Shown here in pieces: positions 1-59,154 of a DNA stretch of 64,000 bases. The stretch covers positions 37,999-101,998 of the forward strand of contig CAWIDS010000003.1 in NCBI GenBank assembly GCA_963834935.1, given 5' to 3'. The first letter of the stretch is position 1. Each line of letters begins with the position of its first letter. The notes beneath the pieces were generated by a model, which saw only the letters and a program-made list of their open reading frames with translations, made no database searches and was not told where the DNA came from. Both the position numbers and the translations under genes were made by a program. This stretch comes from Candidatus Nomurabacteria bacterium. Lineage in GTDB: Bacteria > Patescibacteriota > Minisyncoccia > Phycocordibacterales > CALRBL01.

Positions 1-1959
1 AAGCGGAGATTCGCCCGTGCCTGACGGCTCATATGATTTCACTTTAGGAAGAATGACAGGCAGATCCTTTTCCTTCACCGGAATGATTGTACCATCCTCG
101 GCATGGAATACTGGAATCGGCTCGCCCCAATAACGCTGCCGAGAAAAAACCCAGTCGCGGAGCTTATAGTTGACCTTGCGGGTTCCAAATCCTCCCTCGA
201 CTATGTGATTGATGATGTCCTGCCGCACTTCTCCCCATTTTCTTCCTTTGAATTTTGAAGGTTCAAGCATTATTCCGTTCCAATCCCTCGCGTAGCAGAC
301 CTCAAGATTTTTTACTTTCTGAGCTAAGACGGGATCTGCAGGAACAGTGACCACCCTGAGAGGTATGTCATATTTCTTTGCAAAAGCAAAATCACGCTCA
401 TCATGGGCGCTGCAATTGACGATTCCTGTTCCGTAATCCGATAAGACATATGATGCGATCCAGATAGGCAGATCCCTTCCTGTATCGGCAAAACTTTCTA
501 TATATCTACCGGTAAAGATTCCTTCCATGTCTTTCTCAACATCGAATTTATTCTGGGCTTTTTTCTGCTTCAGCTTGGCCACGAATTCCATCACTTTCTT
601 TTCATGAGGAGTATCTTTGACTAATTCCTCGATGAGCGGATGATCCGGCGCAATAGCAGTGAACGTTTCGGCATGATATGACTGCGGCACTGAGTTATAC
701 ATCTCAACTCTTATATCGAGATCTTTTACCTTGCATTTGAAATTGACTCCTTCGCTTCTTCCAATCCAATTCCTTTGGCTTTCCTTTATCGATTCTGGCC
801 AGTCAAGAAGCGGTTTTGGAAATCCTTTTTTCGGATCTTTGAGGCGCTCGAGCCAGATAGGTAATTCCGAATTAACCATCTTGCCCGGAACGAAATCAGC
901 TTCGTCGATCCACAGGATTTCATTATCCTTGTCTTCATCGGCGCCGATCGAGACTTTCTTGTAGCTTTTCAATTCAAGATAGACGCCGGTGGCGATCGCT
1001 ACCCTGTTCTCGCCTTTATGCTTGGTGTAATACGAAGCCTTGGTCGGGCCACCGAGAATGCGTTTGAATTCGACATCGACATAACCTGTCTCCTCCTTCA
1101 ATTCGCGGAAAACCGTATCTTTTGCGGTTTCGTCTTCTTCAATTCCGCCGATCACTACCGTATCCCAGCCGAATTTCTTGTTGCGGATGATCAGGTATTT
1201 CTTAGTCTTTGGATCGAAGACGATCGCATGAGCGACCTTTCGGATGACAAGCGGTTTTCCCGGCTGATGCGGATTGACCTTGTCGACTAGTTCCGGCATT
1301 TCATATTCGGTCGCATCCAGATCCTTGAGCAAGCGGTCTGCATAGTCGGTGATTTTCAAGATCCACTGGCGCATCATCTTTTTCTCGACAAGCGCTCCGC
1401 ACCGCTCGCAGCGGCCGTTCTCCACGTCTTCATTGGCCAGGCCTGTCATGTCTACCGGACACCAGTTGATAGGCTCGTACGCTTCGTAGGCCAAGCCTTT
1501 CTCAAGCAATTTCAAGAATATCCATTGCGTCCATTTATAATATTTCGGATCAGTGGTATTCACCTCGCGCGACCAATCGTAATCGAAGCCAAGAATTTCC
1601 AATTGCTTCTTGTAGTGCGCGACATTTTTCGCTACACCGACAGCTGGATTGGTCTTGGTCTTGATTGCATAGTTTTCCGCAGGCAATCCGAAGGCATCGA
1701 AACCCATCGGATGCAAGACATTAAAGCCTTGCATTCGCTTCATGCGCGAGATGACATCAGTGGCAATATATCCTTTCGGATGGCCGACATGAAGGCCTTC
1801 TCCGGACGGATATGGAAACATATCGAGGATATAGCATTTCTCTTTTTTGCCCTCCTCAGCTGTCTTGTAGATTTTCTTCTTTTCCCAGTCTTTCTGCCAC
1901 TTCTTCTCTATCTTGAAAGGGTCATATGATGAGCGGGACACCGGAGTTTTTTTCTTCAT
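1..1959 (-). CDS. leuS: Leucyl-tRNA synthetase, N-terminal about 650 aa; the gene continues past the window start. An extra Nudix domain is inserted.
   Basis: Reverse-strand translation starts [21 protein letters not shown] and carries the HIGH-region motif [16 protein letters not shown], the zinc-finger motif CPVD...CERCG, [9 protein letters not shown], the CP1 editing-domain motifs ([21 protein letters not shown]) and [19 protein letters not shown]. The ORF is absent from the supplied track because it runs off the window edge. Start codon complement at 1957-1959. Confidence 0.85.
   Translation of the reverse strand, partial: [653 protein letters not shown]
802..1305 (-). other. Nudix hydrolase domain inserted into LeuRS, residues about 219-386, between the zinc-finger motif and the RNWIGRSEG motif
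   Basis: Nudix box [23 protein letters not shown] (GX5EX7REUXEEXGU) inside a domain of about 160 aa. E. coli LeuRS is contiguous at this point ([24 protein letters not shown]), so this is a true insertion and not a replacement of CP1. Confidence 0.6.
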
Positions 1960-2477: not shown

Positions 2478-4613
2478 TTATCCCCTGCCATACTCCTTTC
2501 TGCCTTTAATTCCCTTGTTCTCGTCCTTTTTTTCTTTCTTGTCGCGCTTCACTTTGTTGTCCATCCTTTCTACAATCGCTTTTATTTCATCGCGAAGTAT
2601 CGCAGCAGTTTCAAAATCCAGATCCTTCACCGCTTCGCTCATCTGCTTTTCTTTTTCCTTAATGAGCTTGGCTGGATTTTTCTGGTAGGCCTCTTCATCG
2701 AGCTTCAAAAGAGTTTTTATGGTCTTCTCATGCTCACTCTGAATCTCTTCGGTGATATCTTTGATTTTTTTGATGATAGTTGTCGGAGTAATCCCATGTT
2801 CCTTGTTGTAGGCAAGCTGGATAGTGCGACGACGCTCGGTTTCTTTCATGGCTTTCTCCATCGAATTGGTAATCTTGTCGGCATAGAGAATGACGCGGCC
2901 TTCCGAATTTCTGGCTGCACGACCGATGGTCTGAATGAGCGCTTGTTCCGAACGGAGGAAGCCTTCCTTGTCCGCGTCGAGGATGCCTATAAGCGCCACT
3001 TCGGGAAGATCCAATCCTTCGCGAAGAAGGTTCACTCCGACAAGCACGTCGAATGTGCCTTTACGGAGCTCGGTCAAGATGCGAATGCGATCAAGCGTCT
3101 CGATATCGCTATGCAGATACTCCGCCTTTATCTTCTTTTCCTTCAGATACTCGCTTAAATCTTCTGCCATTTTCTTAGTAAGCGTCGTTGCAATCACCCT
3201 GAAGCCTTTCTTGATCACCTCGAGCGCTTCTTCGGTGAAATCGATCACCTGGCCAAGGTATTTCTTGTCAGTAGTACTGACGATCGGCTTGACGGAAATG
3301 ATCGGATCGACAAGACCTGTCGGACGGATGATCTGCTCCGCAATGTTTTGGCTTTTTTCGAATTCGTATTTGCCTGGAGTAGCCGAAGTATAGATAGCTT
3401 GACCGATTTTTTTCTCAAATTCCTCGAACTTGAGAGGGCGGTTATCACGAGCAGATGGCAATCGAAAGCCGAATTCGATGAGGCTTTGCTTTCGCGAAGC
3501 GTCTCCGGCATACATTCCGCCTATCTGCGGAATGGTGACGTGTGACTCGTCGATGATGGTCAGGAAATCCGCACTGCCATCGGCATTATGGGGAAAATAT
3601 GAAAGCAGCGAATCGGGTGCTTCTCCGGGAGCCTTGCCCGAAAAATGCCGGGAATAGTTCTCTATGCCGTTGCAATAGCCGACTTCCTTGATCAGCGCGA
3701 GGTCGTAATTGGTTCGGCGCTTCAGGCGGTCAGCTTCGAGTATCTTGCCTTCAGCTGCCAATTCTTTCAGCCTCCTGTCGAGTTCGGCTTTGATGTCCTT
3801 GATTGCACGGATGCGCTCGTCTTCCGGCGTGACGAAATGCTTTGCAGGAAACAAGAAGAAGACGGGGACCTCCTCGACGATCCTGCGGGTTATTTCGTCT
3901 ATCTTGAAGACGCTTTGTATCACGCTTTCGCCTTTGACAGTTGCGCCGAATTCAACTTTGTAGATCACCCGTTCGGATGTCGGCATGATTTCTATTTTGT
4001 TTCCCATCGCCCGGAACGTTCCCGGACTCAAATCTGCATTGGTACGCGTAAAGTAGATGGAAATGAGCCGGCGGATGAACTCTGCGCGGTCGGTCTTTGC
4101 GCCTGCCTGTATTTTCATATTGACTTTCTGATATTCCACAGGACTTCCCAAGCCGTAGATGCAAGAAACGGACGCGACGATAATCACGTCATTGCGACTA
4201 AGAAGCGCTTGAGTAGAAGCATGGCGCAGTCGGTCAATTTCCTCATTTATCTGCGCTTCCTTCTCTATATATGTGTCAGTCGTCGGCATGTAGGCTTCCG
4301 GCTGGTAGTAGTCGTAATAGGAAACAAAGTAGTGGACGGCATTATCTGGAAAGAATTCCCGATATTCCTGAGCAAGCTGGGCCGCGAGAGTTTTGTTGTG
4401 GGCAATCACCAGCGTCGGCTTGCCGACATGAGCAATCACATTCGCCACAGTGAAAGTCTTTCCGCTGCCTGTCACTCCGAGCAATGTCTGATGCCTGTAG
4501 CTTCGCTCGATACCTTCAATGAGGCTCTCAATAGCCTTTGGCTGATCCCCTGCGGGAGCAAATCGGGTGGAAATCTTGAATAGGTTTTCTTTTTTCTGCT
4601 CTTTTTTTGCCAT
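2478..4613 (-). CDS. uvrB: Excinuclease ABC subunit B
   Basis: 711 aa with Walker A GVTGSGKT, the UvrB beta-hairpin region and helicase motifs, and a lysine-rich C-terminal tail. An upstream TGTATAGT-like -10 lies 6 nt before the ATG, which implies a leaderless transcript. Confidence 0.95.
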   Translation of the reverse strand: MAKKEQKKENLFKISTRFAPAGDQPKAIESLIEGIERSYRHQTLLGVTGSGKTFTVANVIAHVGKPTLVIAHNKTLAAQLAQEYREFFPDNAVHYFVSYYDYYQPEAYMPTTDTYIEKEAQINEEIDRLRHASTQALLSRNDVIIVASVSCIYGLGSPVEYQKVNMKIQAGAKTDRAEFIRRLISIYFTRTNADLSPGTFRAMGNKIEIMPTSERVIYKVEFGATVKGESVIQSVFKIDEITRRIVEEVPVFFLFPAKHFVTPEDERIRAIKDIKAELDRRLKELAAEGKILEADRLKRRTNYDLALIKEVGYCNGIENYSRHFSGKAPGEAPDSLLSYFPHNADGSADFLTIIDESHVTIPQIGGMYAGDASRKQSLIEFGFRLPSARDNRPLKFEEFEKKIGQAIYTSATPGKYEFEKSQNIAEQIIRPTGLVDPIISVKPIVSTTDKKYLGQVIDFTEEALEVIKKGFRVIATTLTKKMAEDLSEYLKEKKIKAEYLHSDIETLDRIRILTELRKGTFDVLVGVNLLREGLDLPEVALIGILDADKEGFLRSEQALIQTIGRAARNSEGRVILYADKITNSMEKAMKETERRRTIQLAYNKEHGITPTTIIKKIKDITEEIQSEHEKTIKTLLKLDEEAYQKNPAKLIKEKEKQMSEAVKDLDFETAAILRDEIKAIVERMDNKVKRDKKEKKDENKGIKGRKEYGRG

Positions 4614-31450: not shown

Positions 31451-33172
31451 TTATTTGTCCCCTTCGACCTCGGCCTTCACGAAAATCCGAACCAGCTGCA
31501 CTTCGCGGTAACTCACTGCAGGGCTCAGCTTGAATTTCTTCTTGTTCTTCTCAAGGTAATCCTTCGCAGGTGCCAAGCGCCAGTCCTTGTTTTTTTCATA
31601 CATCATGGCAAGCGCTTCAGAAATCGGATCAAAGCGCTTTTTAGGAATGGTTTTGCGGAGATATTCGACTTCTCGCAGGACCGCAGCATCTTCTTCGACC
31701 AATTTTTCAATATGATCGATGACTGTCTGCTCGGTGATTCCCCTCTTTTTTGCGATTTCCTCGATAAGCAATTCTTCCTTGATGAGCTCGTGGGTGACTT
31801 CGAATGTCGAAGGCTTCGCTGCTTTCTTCGGCTTTGATGAAGTGATCGAGGCAAGATAGCTTTCCTGCGCAGACTGAAGCTTTCCTTTCTTTGCGTATTC
31901 CTTGAGCTGCTTGACTGCCGTCTCTGATTGAACCTTCAGCTCTTCATCGTGCTCCAGCACCTCGTCATTGACCTCAAGAGCGCTTTCATTCATGCCAAGT
32001 ATGGTAAGGCCTGCAAGAGTGCGCACTCTGGAAAGCGCCACATAGCCCATTCCCTTCTCGAAGGATTTAGAAAGATCCACTTCTACCGCATCGAGCGACA
32101 TTCCCTGGCTTTTATGAACCGTGATTGCCCATGCCAGCCGGAGCGGATACTGCTGAAGCTCGGCTTTGGCTTTTCCCTCTTCCTCGATGGTCCAGCTTGC
32201 TATCGGAACTTCAATGAACTCGCCGGTGCGCAGTATTTCAACCACTGGCCCTCCGGCATTGCCTTCGAGCTTTCGCACGATTCCGAGGGTTCCGTTGGCG
32301 AAGCCTATCTCGAAATCATTCTTGACGAACATCACGCGCGCACCCGCTTTCAATCGGAGCCTCTCGGGAGCGAGGCAGCTTTTTTTCAGGATCGATACCA
32401 GCATGTCGGAGCCGGAGGTATGCATGTCATAATTCATCGACTGGCCGTCGAGCACGTCGAGCTCATTCTCATTCACCTTGTCCACATCGATATTGTGGGT
32501 ATAAAGGCGCGTCGGCTGGATGCTCATTTCTTCTTCCTTCTTGTTGGCTTTGAAGCATTTCTTCAGATGATCCATCGTGGTTCCGCTTACCCTGTTTCCG
32601 CGGATGTCATTGAGGACGGTCAGCGCGTGGTCGTCCGTCTGTCGGTACTGCTCCTCCAGATAGCAGATCTTGAATCCGGCATTCTTCCATGATTCGGAAT
32701 GGTAGGCGAAATGCGCATCCTGCTCGCCCATCCGCGATACCGGCGGAAGCTGGAAGAAATCGCCGCAAAGGATCACCTGTATGCCGCCGAAAGGCTTGTC
32801 ATTCCTCTTGAAAGTGCGGACTATCTTCTCCACCAGATCAAGGCGGAAATGATGAAGCATGGATATCTCGTCGATGATGAGCACTTTCACGCGCTCCATG
32901 CGCTTCCAGAGATACGGCTTCTCGAGCATCGCCTCAAGGTCGTAGTCGCTGATGCTGTCACGCACGCCGAGGCCTGTCCAGGAATGGATAGTCACGCCTC
33001 CCATGTGCGTAGCAGCAATGCCCGTGGAGGCGGTAATTCCGACATCGACATCATGATGATTAAGGTAATCGATGTACTGATTCAAAAGATGAGTCTTACC
33101 CGAGCCTGCAGGCCCCGTAATATACGCATTGCAGCCGAGCTTGAGGATGTCGAGAGCTTCTTTTTGAGTCAT
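31451..33172 (-). CDS. Pif1-like/RecD-like superfamily 1B DNA helicase with a C-terminal helix-turn-helix-like extension
   Basis: Motifs GPAGSGKT, IIDEISML and ILCGDFFQLPPV, plus a C-terminal domain of about 120 aa (KKRGITEQTVIDHIEKLVEE). Start placed at the ATG (MTQKEALD). Confidence 0.8.
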   Translation of the reverse strand: MTQKEALDILKLGCNAYITGPAGSGKTHLLNQYIDYLNHHDVDVGITASTGIAATHMGGVTIHSWTGLGVRDSISDYDLEAMLEKPYLWKRMERVKVLIIDEISMLHHFRLDLVEKIVRTFKRNDKPFGGIQVILCGDFFQLPPVSRMGEQDAHFAYHSESWKNAGFKICYLEEQYRQTDDHALTVLNDIRGNRVSGTTMDHLKKCFKANKKEEEMSIQPTRLYTHNIDVDKVNENELDVLDGQSMNYDMHTSGSDMLVSILKKSCLAPERLRLKAGARVMFVKNDFEIGFANGTLGIVRKLEGNAGGPVVEILRTGEFIEVPIASWTIEEEGKAKAELQQYPLRLAWAITVHKSQGMSLDAVEVDLSKSFEKGMGYVALSRVRTLAGLTILGMNESALEVNDEVLEHDEELKVQSETAVKQLKEYAKKGKLQSAQESYLASITSSKPKKAAKPSTFEVTHELIKEELLIEEIAKKRGITEQTVIDHIEKLVEEDAAVLREVEYLRKTIPKKRFDPISEALAMMYEKNKDWRLAPAKDYLEKNKKKFKLSPAVSYREVQLVRIFVKAEVEGDK

Positions 33173-33203
33173 GTGGATTGAAGTATATGGTATAATCGCC
33201 TGT

Positions 33204-33557
33204 ATGAAAAATGCCGAAGAAATGGCACAAGAGGAATCAGGAATCCTCAACCACGAGATCACTCCCAAAGACCGCTTGCAGAAGCAGATGGTCCTTGCTG
33301 AGGAGCTCTATATCAGAAATCACCCTGATCAGACGGTAGATGTCGGGAATCATGATATGAGAAATGCGATCATGAACGAGTGGTCAAACATCGACGGAGA
33401 CATGAGCAAAAGCTTCTCTGCCTATTTCAGGGAACTTGAAAATGCCTTAATGGCAAGCCCCGGACACGCTGAACGCGGAAAGACTATTCTCGATATCACG
33501 CTCGACGACCTTATCGCTTTCAAAGAGACAGGAACTCTCCCTCCCGAGTGGCTTTAG
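33204..33557 (+). CDS. Hypothetical protein (117 aa), leaderless
   Basis: TGgTATAAT at 33188-33196 lies 7 nt upstream of the ATG (MKNAEEM). Confidence 0.5.
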   Translation: MKNAEEMAQEESGILNHEITPKDRLQKQMVLAEELYIRNHPDQTVDVGNHDMRNAIMNEWSNIDGDMSKSFSAYFRELENALMASPGHAERGKTILDITLDDLIAFKETGTLPPEWL

Positions 33558-39334: not shown

Positions 39335-39355
39335 ATTGATGCTTTTGTTCCTGTA

Positions 39356-39562
39356 TTATAGGACGAAAGCGCTTAAAAAACTAAGAGATTCGGAAAGCCA
39401 TGATGAAGTGTAGCCTTGTAGGTCGCGAAGCTGCCTCGAAAGGAACTTGTGTCGGCGCGCTTCATTCTTGTATGGAAGGCCCTTGATGATCTTGATATCG
39501 ATCTCTGCGTTCAGCTTCGACAATTCCCTTTCTATTTTCCTACTTAATGCGTGATTGCTCAT
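39356..39562 (-). CDS. Small protein (68 aa) encoded immediately upstream of lexA in the same operon
   Basis: ATG at 39560-39562, 21 nt ahead of lexA; coiled-coil character, possibly a DUF465-like small protein. Confidence 0.5.
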   Translation of the reverse strand: MSNHALSRKIERELSKLNAEIDIKIIKGLPYKNEARRHKFLSRQLRDLQGYTSSWLSESLSFLSAFVL

Positions 39563-39599
39563 GTTTTTGTTGGTTATTTGATAATTTTCTTATATTTAT

Positions 39600-39628
39600 A
39601 GTATAGGTGAACTTAAGTTCACCGTCAA
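39600..39628 (-). promoter_or_regulatory. SOS promoter on the minus strand: -35 TTGACG, a 17-nt spacer and -10 TATACT, with a LexA operator-like palindrome GGTGAAC-TTAA-GTTCACC (39606-39623) filling the spacer exactly
   Basis: Perfect 7-4-7 inverted repeat of the Cheo-box type GAAC-N4-GTTC, read directly from the sequence. Confidence 0.6.
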
Positions 39629-39723
39629 GCAGATAGTTGTGGATAACTGAAAAAATAGACAATATCGCGAGGAGAAAGGCATAATGATTTTTAAAAAACC
39701 ATCAAGGCTATATCAACCACCCT

Positions 39724-39750
39724 CAGCCTGCGCTAAGCAGGTTTTTTATT
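39724..39750 (+). terminator. Rho-independent terminator upstream of tRNA-Gln
   Basis: cctgc-gctaa-gcagg followed by ttttttattt. Confidence 0.5.
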
Positions 39751-39797
39751 TGCTTGAAATATGCTAAATTGGGAACCTCAAGGGACCGCCCTTACAT

Positions 39798-39871
39798 TGC
39801 GAGATCGTCTAATGGTAGGACATCAGGTTTTGGTCCTGAGTATCTAGGTTCGAGTCCTAGTCTCGCAGCCA
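39798..39871 (+). tRNA. tRNA-Gln (anticodon UUG), CCA encoded
   Basis: Hand-folded cloverleaf: acceptor tgcgaga/tctcgca; D-arm gtct-aatggta-ggac; anticodon stem tcagg/cctga with loop ttTTGgt; T-arm ctagg-ttcgagt-cctag; discriminator g followed by cca. Confidence 0.8.
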
Positions 39872-57798: not shown

Positions 57799-59154
57799 AT
57801 GGCAACGCGCATACCTCCTCAAAACATCGATTCTGAAAAAGCATTCCTCGGCTCAATCATGCTGAAGCCCGACAGCATGAATGATATTTTCGATATCATA
57901 AATTCCCAATCGTTCTACGCCGAAAGGCATCGCAATATCTACATCGCCATGGGCGAGCTCTTCCAGAGACAGGAACCGATCGACATCATTTCCCTTTCAT
58001 CGAAGCTCAAGGAAAAAGGCATCATCGACCAAGTCGGCGGAGGAAGCTATCTCGCCGAGCTTGTGAACTTCGTGCCATCTGCGGCAAACCTCACATACTA
58101 CGCAGACATCATCAGAAAAAAGCACATCATGCGCAACCTCATCGAGGCCGGAGAGCATGTGGCTCATCTTGGCTACAATGAAAGCGGCGAGATGGAAGAG
58201 ATTCTCGACCAGGCGGAAAAGAAGATGTTCGAAGTGACTAATTTCTCCTCGACCAACAAATTCATCGAATTGAAAGATACTCTCGGGGACGCATGGGAAC
58301 GCATCGACAAGCTCCACAAGAATCAACATGAGCTCCGCGGCGTGCCGACCGGCTTCCGCGAGCTTGATGACAAGCTTCTAGGCTTCCAGAAATCCGACCT
58401 CATCATCCTCGCTGCCCGGCCTTCCATGGGTAAGACTTCCCTTGCCTTGGACATTGCCCGCAAGACCGCCATCCAGAACAATATACCAGTCGCTATCTTC
58501 TCCCTTGAAATGAGCGCGGCGCAGCTTGTCGACCGAATGCTTGCTGCCGAATCAAACGTCGACTCATGGAAGCTCCGCACCGGCCACGACCTCTCAATCG
58601 AAGATGACTTCATCCGCATCCGAGACGCCATGGACAAGCTGTCCAAAGCCCCTATCTTCATCGACGACCAGCCAGGAAACAATATCCTCAAGATGCGTTC
58701 CATCGCCCGTCGCTTGAAAAATGAGAAAGGTCTCGGCCTGATCATCGTTGACTATCTCCAGCTCATGGCTCCCGTGCAGACGAAGAATTCCGACAGCATG
58801 GTCAACCAGATCACCGAGATTTCCAAGTCGCTCAAGAATCTTGCCCGCGAGCTCGATGTTCCGGTGATAGCCCTTTCGCAGCTCAACCGTGCCGTCGAAG
58901 CTCGCGGAGGCGAACCGCGACTTTCGGATCTTCGAGATTCAGGTTCTATCGAGCAAGATGCCGATGTCGTCATGTTCATCCACCGCGAAGACAAATACAA
59001 CAAGGAGTCGGATCGTCCGAACATCGCCCGCATCATGATCGAGAAGCACCGAAACGGTCCCACCGGCGTCGCCGAGCTTTACTTCAATGCCCAGAAGACT
59101 ACCTTCCAGAGCATCGACAAAAGCCAGCACGGAGGCGACTTCGGCGCATTTTAA
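57799..59154 (+). CDS. dnaB: Replicative DNA helicase
   Basis: N-terminal domain; Walker A ARPSMGKTS; SQLNRAVE...; H4 motifs. Confidence 0.95.
   Translation: MATRIPPQNIDSEKAFLGSIMLKPDSMNDIFDIINSQSFYAERHRNIYIAMGELFQRQEPIDIISLSSKLKEKGIIDQVGGGSYLAELVNFVPSAANLTYYADIIRKKHIMRNLIEAGEHVAHLGYNESGEMEEILDQAEKKMFEVTNFSSTNKFIELKDTLGDAWERIDKLHKNQHELRGVPTGFRELDDKLLGFQKSDLIILAARPSMGKTSLALDIARKTAIQNNIPVAIFSLEMSAAQLVDRMLAAESNVDSWKLRTGHDLSIEDDFIRIRDAMDKLSKAPIFIDDQPGNNILKMRSIARRLKNEKGLGLIIVDYLQLMAPVQTKNSDSMVNQITEISKSLKNLARELDVPVIALSQLNRAVEARGGEPRLSDLRDSGSIEQDADVVMFIHREDKYNKESDRPNIARIMIEKHRNGPTGVAELYFNAQKTTFQSIDKSQHGGDFGAF

Follow-up and report, generated by a model that had tools for sequence, protein, structure and literature searches.

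The LexA repressor of Bacillus subtilis (DinR) is autoregulated and acts with an SOS box of the Gram-positive type, the Cheo box CGAAC-N4-GTTCG. Lineage-specific small proteins encoded next to lexA are typically checkpoint inhibitors; sulA lies downstream of lexA in Pseudomonas, and yneA in Bacillus, sosA in Staphylococcus, chiZ in Mycobacterium and divS in Corynebacterium are divergent from it. Small helical partners that bind LexA are known as well, and the models for small proteins that modulate the switch itself are DdrR with UmuDAb, gp7 of phage GIL01 with LexA, and DinI or RecX with RecA. The replication checkpoint protein Sda of B. subtilis is a helical hairpin of 46 aa that targets the sporulation kinases, is removed in dependence on its C-terminal residues and is made from a damage-responsive promoter containing DnaA boxes; DnaA-regulated promoters with TTATCCACA boxes include those of dnaA, nrdAB and sda. 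Much of bacterial diversity belongs to the Patescibacteria, most of which are uncultured; as their genomes are minimal, the SOS-controlled genes that they keep indicate what a damage response cannot spare. Our literature search for LexA in CPR bacteria or Parcubacteria returned nothing relevant. The SOS network of Patescibacteria is said to have been treated by Sanchez-Osuna, Barbe and Erill (Environ Microbiol 2017;19:3465), and parts of the present findings may already have been described there.

We describe a locus within a 64-kb stretch of DNA (the window, i.e., the whole stretch that was analyzed) which we read as the autoregulated core SOS operon of a Paceibacteria-type Patescibacteria genome, with a probability of about 0.8 for the operon and its autoregulation. 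A sigma-70-type promoter with an operator-filled spacer appears to drive one bicistronic transcript that would encode a 68-aa protein and then LexA (Table 1). A LexA dimer would sit on the palindrome and shut RNA polymerase out of both hexamers; once the DNA is damaged, LexA, stimulated by RecA, would cleave itself at Ala75-Gly76 with its Ser111/Lys148 dyad, which would lift the repression, and the small protein and new LexA would then be produced together, resetting the circuit. We infer LexA binding, damage induction and translation of the small ORF, as well as the DnaA binding considered below, from sequence comparison.

The locus shares with the Cheo-box systems a self-cleaving LexA of the S24 type, a GAAC-N4-GTTC palindrome over its own promoter and translesion polymerases in the predicted regulon. 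It differs from them in that 1) the flanks of the core are T/A (TGAAC...GTTCA) and not C/G in 45 of 45 sites, partly imposed by the search pattern, and 2) a new small gene precedes lexA as the first cistron and the promoter carries an additional conserved box, TTATCCACA. The initial annotation of this DNA had classed the operator as a Cheo-box type, which holds for the shared core but not for the flanks. An autoregulated lexA with a GAAC-N4-GTTC operator is known from other bacteria; the small-protein family is undescribed.

Table 1. Elements of the predicted SOS operon and other genes verified in the window
Feature	Position	Strand	Remarks
Conserved box TTATCCACA	39646-39638	minus	15 nt upstream of the operator, just above the -35 hexamer
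-35 hexamer TTGACG	39628-39623	minus	its final G opens the 18-bp palindrome
Spacer GTGAACTTAAGTTCACC	39622-39606	minus	17 nt; holds GTGAACTTAAGTTCAC
Predicted LexA operator GGTGAACTTAAGTTCACC (GGTGAAC-TTAA-GTTCACC)	39606-39623	.	18-bp perfect palindrome; fills the 17-nt spacer
Operator core GTGAAC-N4-GTTCAC	39607-39622		16 bp
-10 hexamer TATACT	39605-39600	minus	1 nt past the operator core
Predicted A-rich leader	39563-39593	minus	~31 nt; 5' end inferred from the position of the -10 hexamer
Small ORF, first cistron	39562-39356	minus	68 aa
Intercistronic gap	39335-39355	minus	21 nt
lexA, second cistron	39334-38768	minus	188 aa
uvrB	2478-4613	minus	verified
Gene for PIF1-type helicase	31451-33268	minus	verified
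dnaB	57799-59154	plus	verified

The promoter and the palindrome in its spacer, from which the initial annotation had started, were confirmed letter by letter on the minus strand, and the gene order given there, with lexA following the 68-aa ORF at 21 nt, agrees with the coordinates of both cistrons. The TTGACG/TATACT pair is the sole strong minus-strand promoter found, and neither a promoter-like nor a terminator-like site was detected in the gap between the small ORF and lexA. The predicted RNA structure of the leader together with the first cistron is unexceptional (z = -0.57), and tRNA-Gln is the only Rfam match nearby.

The product of the second cistron is a genuine LexA, as had been proposed. 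It scores 132.4 bits against TIGR00498 (cutoff 110.95), in an alignment that covers residues 10-187, and matches Peptidase_S24 with E = 4.5e-30. In comparison with E. coli LexA (PDB chains 7b5g and 1jhh), the self-cleavage site LVEAG (Ala75-Gly76) aligns with A84-G85, and the catalytic dyad Ser111 (GDSM) and Lys148 (MKYL) with S119 and K156; this alignment starts at residue 20. The N-terminal part contains a putative winged helix-turn-helix, for which the Pfam model LexA_DNA_bind gives 17 bits (E = 0.0049), under its cutoff of 23.7.

The window contains a single GAAC-N4-GTTC motif where 0.88 are expected by chance, and the 12-mer alone is not significant because about one copy per 64 kb is expected anyway. 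The 16-mer operator with up to three mismatches also occurs once, against 0.13 expected. The significance of the operator derives from the conservation of the layout across orthologous promoters and not from its rarity in the window. The same arrangement of promoter and operator was found ahead of orthologous small ORFs at 45 loci, and after a metagenome scan and pooling the total rose to 113 unique promoters from Patescibacteria MAGs and metagenomes. The half-sites GTGAAC and GTTCAC are identical in all 45 orthologous promoters, where the search pattern partly fixed them, and they are constant between the -35 and -10 hexamers throughout the 113 promoters, which is partly a result of site selection. 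The central N4 carries 0.26-0.48 bits per position in the 45 promoters and takes 34 distinct forms among the 113. The orthologous -35 hexamer is TTGACG, TTGACA or TTGCAG, the -10 hexamer is TATACT or TATAAT in nearly all promoters, and the operator sits exactly in the spacer at every locus examined. The length of the leader varies from ~2 to 158 nt, three loci (L004, L051 and L170) being nearly leaderless. The autoregulation proposed in the initial annotation thus gains the support of phylogenetic footprinting, with fixed half-sites around a free N4 in all 113 unique promoters.

The near-expected count of the 12-mer in the window would also fit the view that the palindrome in the promoter is fortuitous or structural and that the 68 codons form a lexA leader which is not translated, as would the lack of an obvious Shine-Dalgarno sequence ahead of the small ORF on inspection of its leader. 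This view is opposed by the constant half-sites and position of the palindrome around a variable N4, and by the occurrence of the same operator ahead of classic SOS genes, namely those for a Y-family polymerase and a umuD-like protein. Loss of the anti-Shine-Dalgarno motif is common in Parcubacteria, about half of which do not have it (PMC9297842), and this weighs against drawing on the missing Shine-Dalgarno sequence. The small ORF itself bears a strong coding signature: pairwise differences at codon positions 1, 2 and 3 amount to 0.41, 0.28 and 0.61, respectively, and codon differences of a single nucleotide are synonymous in 14,063 cases and non-synonymous in 6,839, a ratio of ~2:1. Its product has 343 homologs that form at least 308 clusters at 50% identity, all of them unnamed or hypothetical. 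By these substitution patterns the small ORF is a real coding gene, and the explanation by chance and an untranslated leader, which we consider extremely improbable, is effectively refuted by the comparative data.

The initial annotation had found no second copy of the box upstream of uvrB, xseA, recR/dnaB or the helicase gene and had suggested that the regulon might be tiny or the other operators degenerate. We scanned for further operators with a position weight matrix built from the 45 sites, the weakest of which scores 22 bits. Nothing else in the window reaches 8 bits, in agreement with the first of these statements; the genes for UvrB, the helicase and DnaB were verified in the course of this analysis (Table 1), and the two ORFs tried as xseA and recR proved to be something else. 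In 295 kb of genome flanks no further operator scores 13 bits or more, save the expected operon operator of locus L042, and in 696 kb of metagenome flanks none beyond the pattern matches scores 16 bits or more. The suggestion of a tiny regulon does not hold for the relatives, where the same operator promoter precedes Y-family polymerase genes (L082, L160 and L175) and a pair of umuD-like and polymerase genes (L118). The SOS regulon predicted from these promoters in related genomes is larger than the lexA operon, and the 16-bp operator locked in a promoter spacer offers a means of mapping SOS-controlled genes in any genome of the Patescibacteria.

A small gene upstream of lexA had been regarded as atypical. 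Within the clade it is the rule: lexA lies downstream of the small ORF in 43 of 43 GTDB species genomes that have the small ORF, and the distance between the two genes is -4 to +32 nt in 41 of the 43 loci. The gene is nevertheless optional, as it is missing from 30 related metagenomic loci in which lexA directly follows the same promoter. The LexA proteins of these loci are ~31-66% identical to that of the window (~47-66% for full-length matches), and those of loci with the small ORF 48-72%. On one contig (L170) the two genes are 2.7 kb apart; the small ORF stands as a monocistronic unit with a box, -35 hexamer, operator and -10 hexamer of its own, and lexA follows another copy of this module. 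Because the monocistronic small ORF has a complete promoter of its own, it appears to be under independent SOS control, i.e., a genuine gene of the SOS response with its own predicted LexA regulation and not a passenger of lexA.

The same observations bear on the possibility that the small protein is a part of the switch, namely a modulator of LexA or RecA that tunes operator binding or self-cleavage. The strict gene order and the tight spacing in 41 of the 43 species loci are what such a function would lead one to expect, and in several relatives the stop codon of the small ORF and the start codon of lexA overlap as ATGA, which suggests translational coupling; the protein is also small and, in the predicted model, helical. 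On the other hand, 30 loci keep operator and promoter and run lexA with no small gene while their LexA is no more divergent, the monocistronic copy is separated from lexA, the family is missing from viral contigs, and no homology to any known modulator was detected. We therefore consider a modulator unlikely. Since the 30 loci without the gene have an equally similar LexA, the small protein looks like an output of the LexA switch and not like one of its components. The pairs DdrR/UmuDAb of Acinetobacter and gp7/LexA of phage GIL01 resemble the present case in coupling a small protein to a LexA-type repressor under SOS control, and differ from it in that the gene studied here is optional, can be unlinked, is not found on viral contigs and has no homology to either. 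A search of viral contigs yielded no relative of the small protein, which argues against a phage origin of the gp7 kind.

The initial annotation assigned the 68-aa protein to no annotated family, and this stands: it has no match in Pfam, NCBIfam or PHROGs, and none of 66 family members matched Pfam or NCBIfam. Homology to SulA, YneA, SidA, Sda or DinI was not detected. An AlphaFold2 model (mean pLDDT 82) places helices at residues 3-27 and 32-67, and with the median net charge of +8 in the family this portrays a soluble, basic helical hairpin. The hairpin fold is generic and carries no functional information. The C-terminal end is conserved as [S/T/A][S/T/A]-F-hydrophobic-hydrophobic, and 62 of the 66 members have Phe at C-terminal position -3. 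A transmembrane or tail-anchor interpretation of this end was rejected, the maximal hydropathy over 19 residues being 1.13, below the approximate threshold of 1.6 for transmembrane segments; among the 66 members there is likewise no membership in the LysM or SulA families and no segment of transmembrane grade.

The small protein, whose widespread unannotated family has at least 308 clusters and is predicted to be LexA-controlled in every case, is a strong candidate for the SOS cell-cycle effector that this lineage is missing. By analogy with SulA and Sda, and in logic only, it may be an SOS checkpoint effector, a reading that we hold tentatively, at somewhat less than even odds. The protein would bind the machinery of division or of replication initiation through its hairpin and would be removed via the C-terminal motif during recovery. 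With the SOS division inhibitors it has in common that a short lineage-specific protein gene adjoins lexA and that the predicted LexA control is kept when the two are unlinked (L170), and it differs from them in having no sequence similarity, transmembrane segment or LysM domain. It is also far smaller than SulA, and its gene lies upstream of lexA in the same predicted transcript. With Sda it would share the very small hairpin, as modeled, a DnaA-box-like promoter element and the predicted damage-responsive control, and its conserved C-terminal tail might mark it for degradation; the two proteins have no similarity in sequence, the family has no Pfam match, and the likeness is one of logic and not of family membership. 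To our knowledge, Sda has not been reported to be repressed by LexA from a spacer operator, and we would not expect sporulation kinases in Patescibacteria. Two observations can be set against the checkpoint reading: the basal expression that maintains LexA would also yield an inhibitor encoded by the preceding cistron, and most known SOS division inhibitors have a membrane segment, which the small protein does not.

The high net charge would equally suit a protein that binds nucleic acid, either rRNA or the ribosome in the manner of bS20 or DNA, possibly the TTATCCACA box. The best PDB matches of the family profile are all bS20, the invariant core D-x5-G-x6-A-x-RHK aligns with the C-terminal hairpin of bS20, and a tblastn search with E. 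coli bS20 against ~360 kb matches almost only the small-protein family. As for the box, it is present in 59 of 64 promoters with the small ORF and in 5 of 31 without it. Homology to bS20 was rejected, however, as the PDB matches have E-values of 0.39-0.66, hhalign gives probabilities of 9% and 3.6%, and PF01649 is matched by none of the 66 members. In comparisons with shuffled sequences, Thermus bS20 scores 1.1 bits, which 506 of 5,000 shuffles equal or exceed, and E. coli bS20 scores 13.6 bits, where the best of 5,000 shuffles reaches 12.1. A homolog search seeded with E. coli bS20 returned enterobacterial sequences only. Furthermore, the ribosomal proteins that CPR bacteria have lost do not include bS20 (PMC9297842), which we count against the bS20 reading. 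Binding to the box is opposed by the occurrence of the box at promoters of loci that have lexA only and of other genes. Taken as a whole, a nucleic-acid binder is in our estimate quite improbable.

The box upstream of the -35 hexamer was overlooked in the initial annotation. It has one perfect copy in the window, where copies with one mismatch are not enriched. Of the 113 unique promoters of small ORFs, 77 have a perfect box and 106 a box with at most one mismatch, and its orientation never changes; at the same tolerance a box occurs in 111 of 14,706 control segments of 40 nt (0.75%). Its distances from the operator cluster at 5-8, 13-17 and 24-26 nt, three classes about one helical turn apart, and in a few loci (L109 and L131) several boxes precede the promoter. 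TTATCCACA is the DnaA-box consensus (TT[A/T]TNCACA), and the observed variants TTTTCCACA, TTGTCCACA and TTATACACA are classic DnaA-box variants, which we count in favor of DnaA. That the box binds DnaA seems to us, judging from the consensus, about an even bet. In that case the promoter would read both the state of replication and damage to the DNA, and DnaA might be tied directly to the SOS switch; our literature search found no earlier report of such a tie, and none joining a DnaA box and a lexA promoter. Neither a dnaA gene nor oriC was found in the 1.08 Mb of DNA searched.

If both the DnaA assignment and the checkpoint reading are adopted, SOS promoters of the Paceibacteria type would be dual-input switches, with DnaA on a phased box and LexA on the spacer operator, and their first product would be a soluble checkpoint protein of a type not recognized before, a basic helical hairpin with a C-terminal degradation or docking motif, which would stop division or re-initiation in organisms that would be without all known SOS inhibitors. 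We regard this combined proposal as doubtful.

The box might instead be the site of another lineage-specific factor or an upstream element that boosts a weak -35 hexamer, an alternative that we consider possible and only a little short of an even chance. It agrees with the finding that promoters of the main spacing class most often have the weak -35 hexamer TTGCAG. It agrees also with the 11 other perfect boxes in 295 kb, 7 of which are intergenic; 3 of these are clearly followed, at 31-33 nt, by a TATAAT-like -10 hexamer, the same distance as at lexA, and they precede ddl and genes for a PAP2 phosphatase and hypothetical proteins, which are unrelated to replication. Against it, the 9-mer equals the near-universal DnaA-box consensus exactly, the box is too rare for a general promoter element, given its single perfect copy in the window, and the multiple boxes at a few loci resemble DnaA-regulated promoters. 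Such promoters are matched here in the exact 9-mer, the fixed orientation, the phased spacing to the core promoter and the occasional multiplicity of boxes; the present box differs from theirs in that it also precedes cell-wall genes.

On the minus strand, hexamers matching a promoter flank a 17-nt spacer that holds a palindrome, as the initial annotation described and as the sequence bears out, and nothing else on that strand in the vicinity of these genes matches a promoter at 10 of 12 positions. The annotated order of a small ORF followed by lexA also holds, given the ORF coordinates and the match of the 188-aa product to the NCBIfam LexA equivalog model (132.4 bits, cutoff 110.95). The product also passes Peptidase_S24 and retains the cleavage site A75-G76 and the catalytic residues S111 and K148 in an alignment to the solved E. 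coli LexA; the Pfam LexA DNA-binding model matches weakly, and the N-terminal region is covered by full-length LexA models. Operon anatomy, gene identities, coding status and conservation are established here by sequence comparison. Coordinates are collected in the table, where L-numbers denote related genome or metagenome loci used for comparison.

Coordinates of the features discussed
Feature	Source	Position	Strand	Remark
DnaA-box-like element, TTATCCACA	window	39646-39638	minus	directly upstream of -35
Promoter: TTGACG, GTGAACTTAAGTTCACC, TATACT	window	39628-39600	minus	sequence reading
Operator core, GTGAAC-TTAA-GTTCAC	window	39622-39607		inside spacer
Perfect palindrome, 18 bp	window	39606-39623		spacer operator plus last G of -35
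Small ORF, 68 codons	window	39562-39356	minus	
lexA, 188 codons	window	39334-38768	minus	starts 21 nt after small ORF
Terminator-like hairpin and T-run	window	39725-39743	plus	between operon promoter and divergent tRNA-Gln
tRNA-Gln	window	39798-39871	plus	
PIF1-like helicase with C-terminal HTH_40	window; L004	31451-33268; 941-2602	minus; 	few kb from lexA operon
Small-ORF ATG 6-7 nt past -10	L004; L051; L170	2985-3003; about 3985-4003; 596-611		
Promoter and leader duplication	L017	3850-4000		tandem
Small ORF-lexA interval without convincing ORF	L052; L054	4168-4706; 4168-4540		371-540 nt
Monocistronic small ORF	L170	580-812		own box, -35, operator, -10
lexA	L170	3317-3925		second full module
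Y-family polymerase	L170	4488-5789		downstream of lexA
Y-family polymerase after operator promoter	L082; L160; L175	552; 624; 1648	;; minus	
umuD-like gene and polymerase after operator promoter	L118	2864	minus	
N6-adenine methylase or Eco57I-like gene after operator promoter	L098; L059	226; 9723	minus; 	
Phage small terminase after operator promoter	L099; L161	400; 1276		
Other perfect intergenic TTATCCACA	L024; L031; L033; L037; L043; L049; L050	160; 848; 545; 2966; 5572; 5750; 5768		

lexA genes that regulate themselves through a GAAC-N4-GTTC operator are a known kind. What is established for LexA elsewhere leads one to expect that a dimer bound to a 16-18-bp site taking up the full spacer would keep RNA polymerase off the promoter, that RecA-stimulated cleavage of LexA would derepress it, and that the bicistronic message would provide negative autoregulation. 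Sanchez-Osuna et al. reportedly analyzed the SOS response of Patescibacteria in 2017. As far as the literature was checked, three features appear to be new: a conserved family of small proteins encoded first in the operon, SOS control of the small gene in its own right, and the phased DnaA-box-like element. Between the operon promoter and the divergent tRNA-Gln, no plus-strand gene ends at the terminator-like hairpin, and Rfam gives the tRNA alone around 39725-39871.

The GAAC-N4-GTTC core occurs once in the 64-kb window against 0.88 expected, so the window alone cannot place it beyond chance; the operator 16-mer, at up to 3 mismatches, is also single (0.13 expected). Across 45 orthologous promoters the order is -35 (TTGACG, TTGACA or TTGCAG), GTGAAC-N4-GTTCAC, one base and TATAMT, with constant half-sites and 0.26-0.48 bits per position in the central N4. 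The constancy of the half-sites is partly imposed by the search pattern; what carries information is that the centre varies freely, the position is constant and the layout is universal. In one apparent exception (L042) the operator sits further upstream. In the L017 duplication, copy 2, ahead of the small ORF, carries a degenerate operator, GTGAAGGACCGTTAAC. No further operators turned up in the flanks of the compared loci.

The small ORF is a gene by its pattern of substitution: a codon alignment of 43 orthologs gives mean pairwise differences of 0.41, 0.28 and 0.61 at the first, second and third codon position, and single-nucleotide codon differences comprise 14,063 synonymous and 6,839 non-synonymous changes. 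Across 66 diverse members of the family, ten positions never change (E13, N18, I21, D22, I25, G28, Y31, R37, H38 and F40). A word-indexed search found 343 homologs and an exhaustive profile search 308 clusters at 50% identity; these homologs span 44-147 aa and every one is unnamed or hypothetical, in agreement with the unannotated family first proposed. When one genome per species was scanned, the gene was present in 43 genomes, whose specifically labelled hosts are Patescibacteria MAGs (Taylorbacteria, Paceibacteria, Nomurabacteria and Giovannonibacteria, besides generic labels). A same-strand LexA gene lies downstream in 43/43, at a gap of -4 to +32 nt in 41, with overlapping ATGA stop/start in several. 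Two loci have a long interval between the genes (table).

No Shine-Dalgarno sequence precedes the small ORF in the window, where its leader is A-rich and about 31 nt long. The ATG follows the -10 by just 2-9 nt in some relatives, and the spacing of 6-7 nt at three loci implies leaderless or nearly leaderless mRNAs. The missing Shine-Dalgarno and short leaders fit a published finding that roughly half of Parcubacteria have lost the anti-SD motif (PMC9297842).

A position weight matrix trained on orthologous sites found no second operator at or above 8 bits elsewhere in the 64 kb, hence none ahead of uvrB, dnaB or the PIF1-type helicase encoded there, as had been claimed. The helicase with HTH_40 lacks the operator in both the window and L004, a distant relative. 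The further suggestion of a tiny regulon is weakened by related bacteria with the same promoter at other genes. Scanning metagenomes for the operator plus -10 gave at least 120 loci. Among those listed, the promoter precedes the small ORF and then lexA in at least 65, a lexA-like gene directly in at least 31 as scored (at least 30 without L118, which is a umuD-like gene with a Y-family polymerase), and neither in at least 9. Of these, three have a Y-family polymerase gene, two an N6-adenine methylase or Eco57I-like gene and two a phage small terminase gene, and the last two are identical copies of a probable chance match on a GC-rich contig. The polymerase, umuD-like, methylase or Eco57I-like and terminase genes are candidate SOS regulon members and LexA-controlled mobile elements of related bacteria.

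In lexA-only loci the promoter lies 7-34 nt from lexA (full-length matches). Their LexA shares about 31-66% identity with that of the window (about 47-66% for full-length matches), compared with 48-72% at small-ORF loci, and is by this measure no more distant; LexA function thus does not require the small gene, which some loci have added to a promoter layout common to all. The most informative locus is the metagenomic contig L170, where three unrelated genes separate the small ORF from lexA, 2.7 kb apart, and the box is TTATCCCCA in both modules. Because the small ORF there has a separate module, the gene keeps predicted LexA control in its own right.

The AlphaFold2 model (66-sequence alignment) is a helical hairpin, with helices 3-27 and 32-67 joined by a GLPY turn; block-mean pLDDT is 96-98 over residues 11-40 and falls to about 56 in the tail. 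Fold searches gave only generic hairpins. A tempting likeness to the hairpin at the C-terminus of ribosomal protein bS20 did not survive testing (hhalign probability 9% and 3.6%, zero PF01649 matches, Thermus bS20 at shuffle level). The family ends in a conserved motif, [S/T/A][S/T/A]-F-hydrophobic-hydrophobic, with Phe at -3 in 62/66 members; this peptide might serve in docking or mark the protein for degradation. Independent LexA control, lineage specificity, dispensability for LexA and the terminal peptide speak for an output of the SOS response, with a cell-cycle checkpoint effector as the leading candidate (probability about 0.4). We favour the checkpoint effector over a modulator of LexA or RecA, which is unlikely, and over a nucleic-acid-binding factor, which is more doubtful still. 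Members of the family are strongly basic, with a median net charge of +8. Most known SOS inhibitors have a membrane segment, whereas no hydrophobic window in this family approaches transmembrane grade, so the protein, if an inhibitor, would be of a new kind.

The box is the only perfect copy of TTATCCACA in the window. Of 113 unique small-ORF promoters, pooled from genomes and the metagenome loci listed, 77 carry it without a mismatch and 106 with one mismatch at most, always in one orientation, and it recurs at the matching position in L004, L008, L010, L011, L013-L055 and most of L056-L175. By comparison, 0.75% of 40-nt control segments from these loci hold a copy within one mismatch, and 29 of 40 perfect copies in 295 kb are at the small-ORF promoter. 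Its distance from the operator falls into three discrete classes that differ by about one turn of the helix: 5-8, 13-17 and 24-26 nt. In sequence the box is the classic DnaA-box consensus, and its observed variants are likewise classic for DnaA boxes; DnaA is the most economical candidate for binding it, at roughly even odds. That the box serves another factor or is an upstream promoter element is a serious alternative, short of an even chance. Among the metagenome loci listed, it occurs within one mismatch in 59/64 small-ORF promoters versus 5/31 lexA-only promoters; it also accompanies the L170 lexA, L118 umuD-like and L098 methylase promoters. Some lone intergenic copies are followed after about 31-33 nt by a TATAAT-like -10, a distance similar to that of the lexA-operon box. 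The genes behind lone boxes are ddl (at two loci), one for a PAP2 phosphatase and others for hypothetical small proteins, and this distribution suggests a small box regulon reaching past SOS genes.
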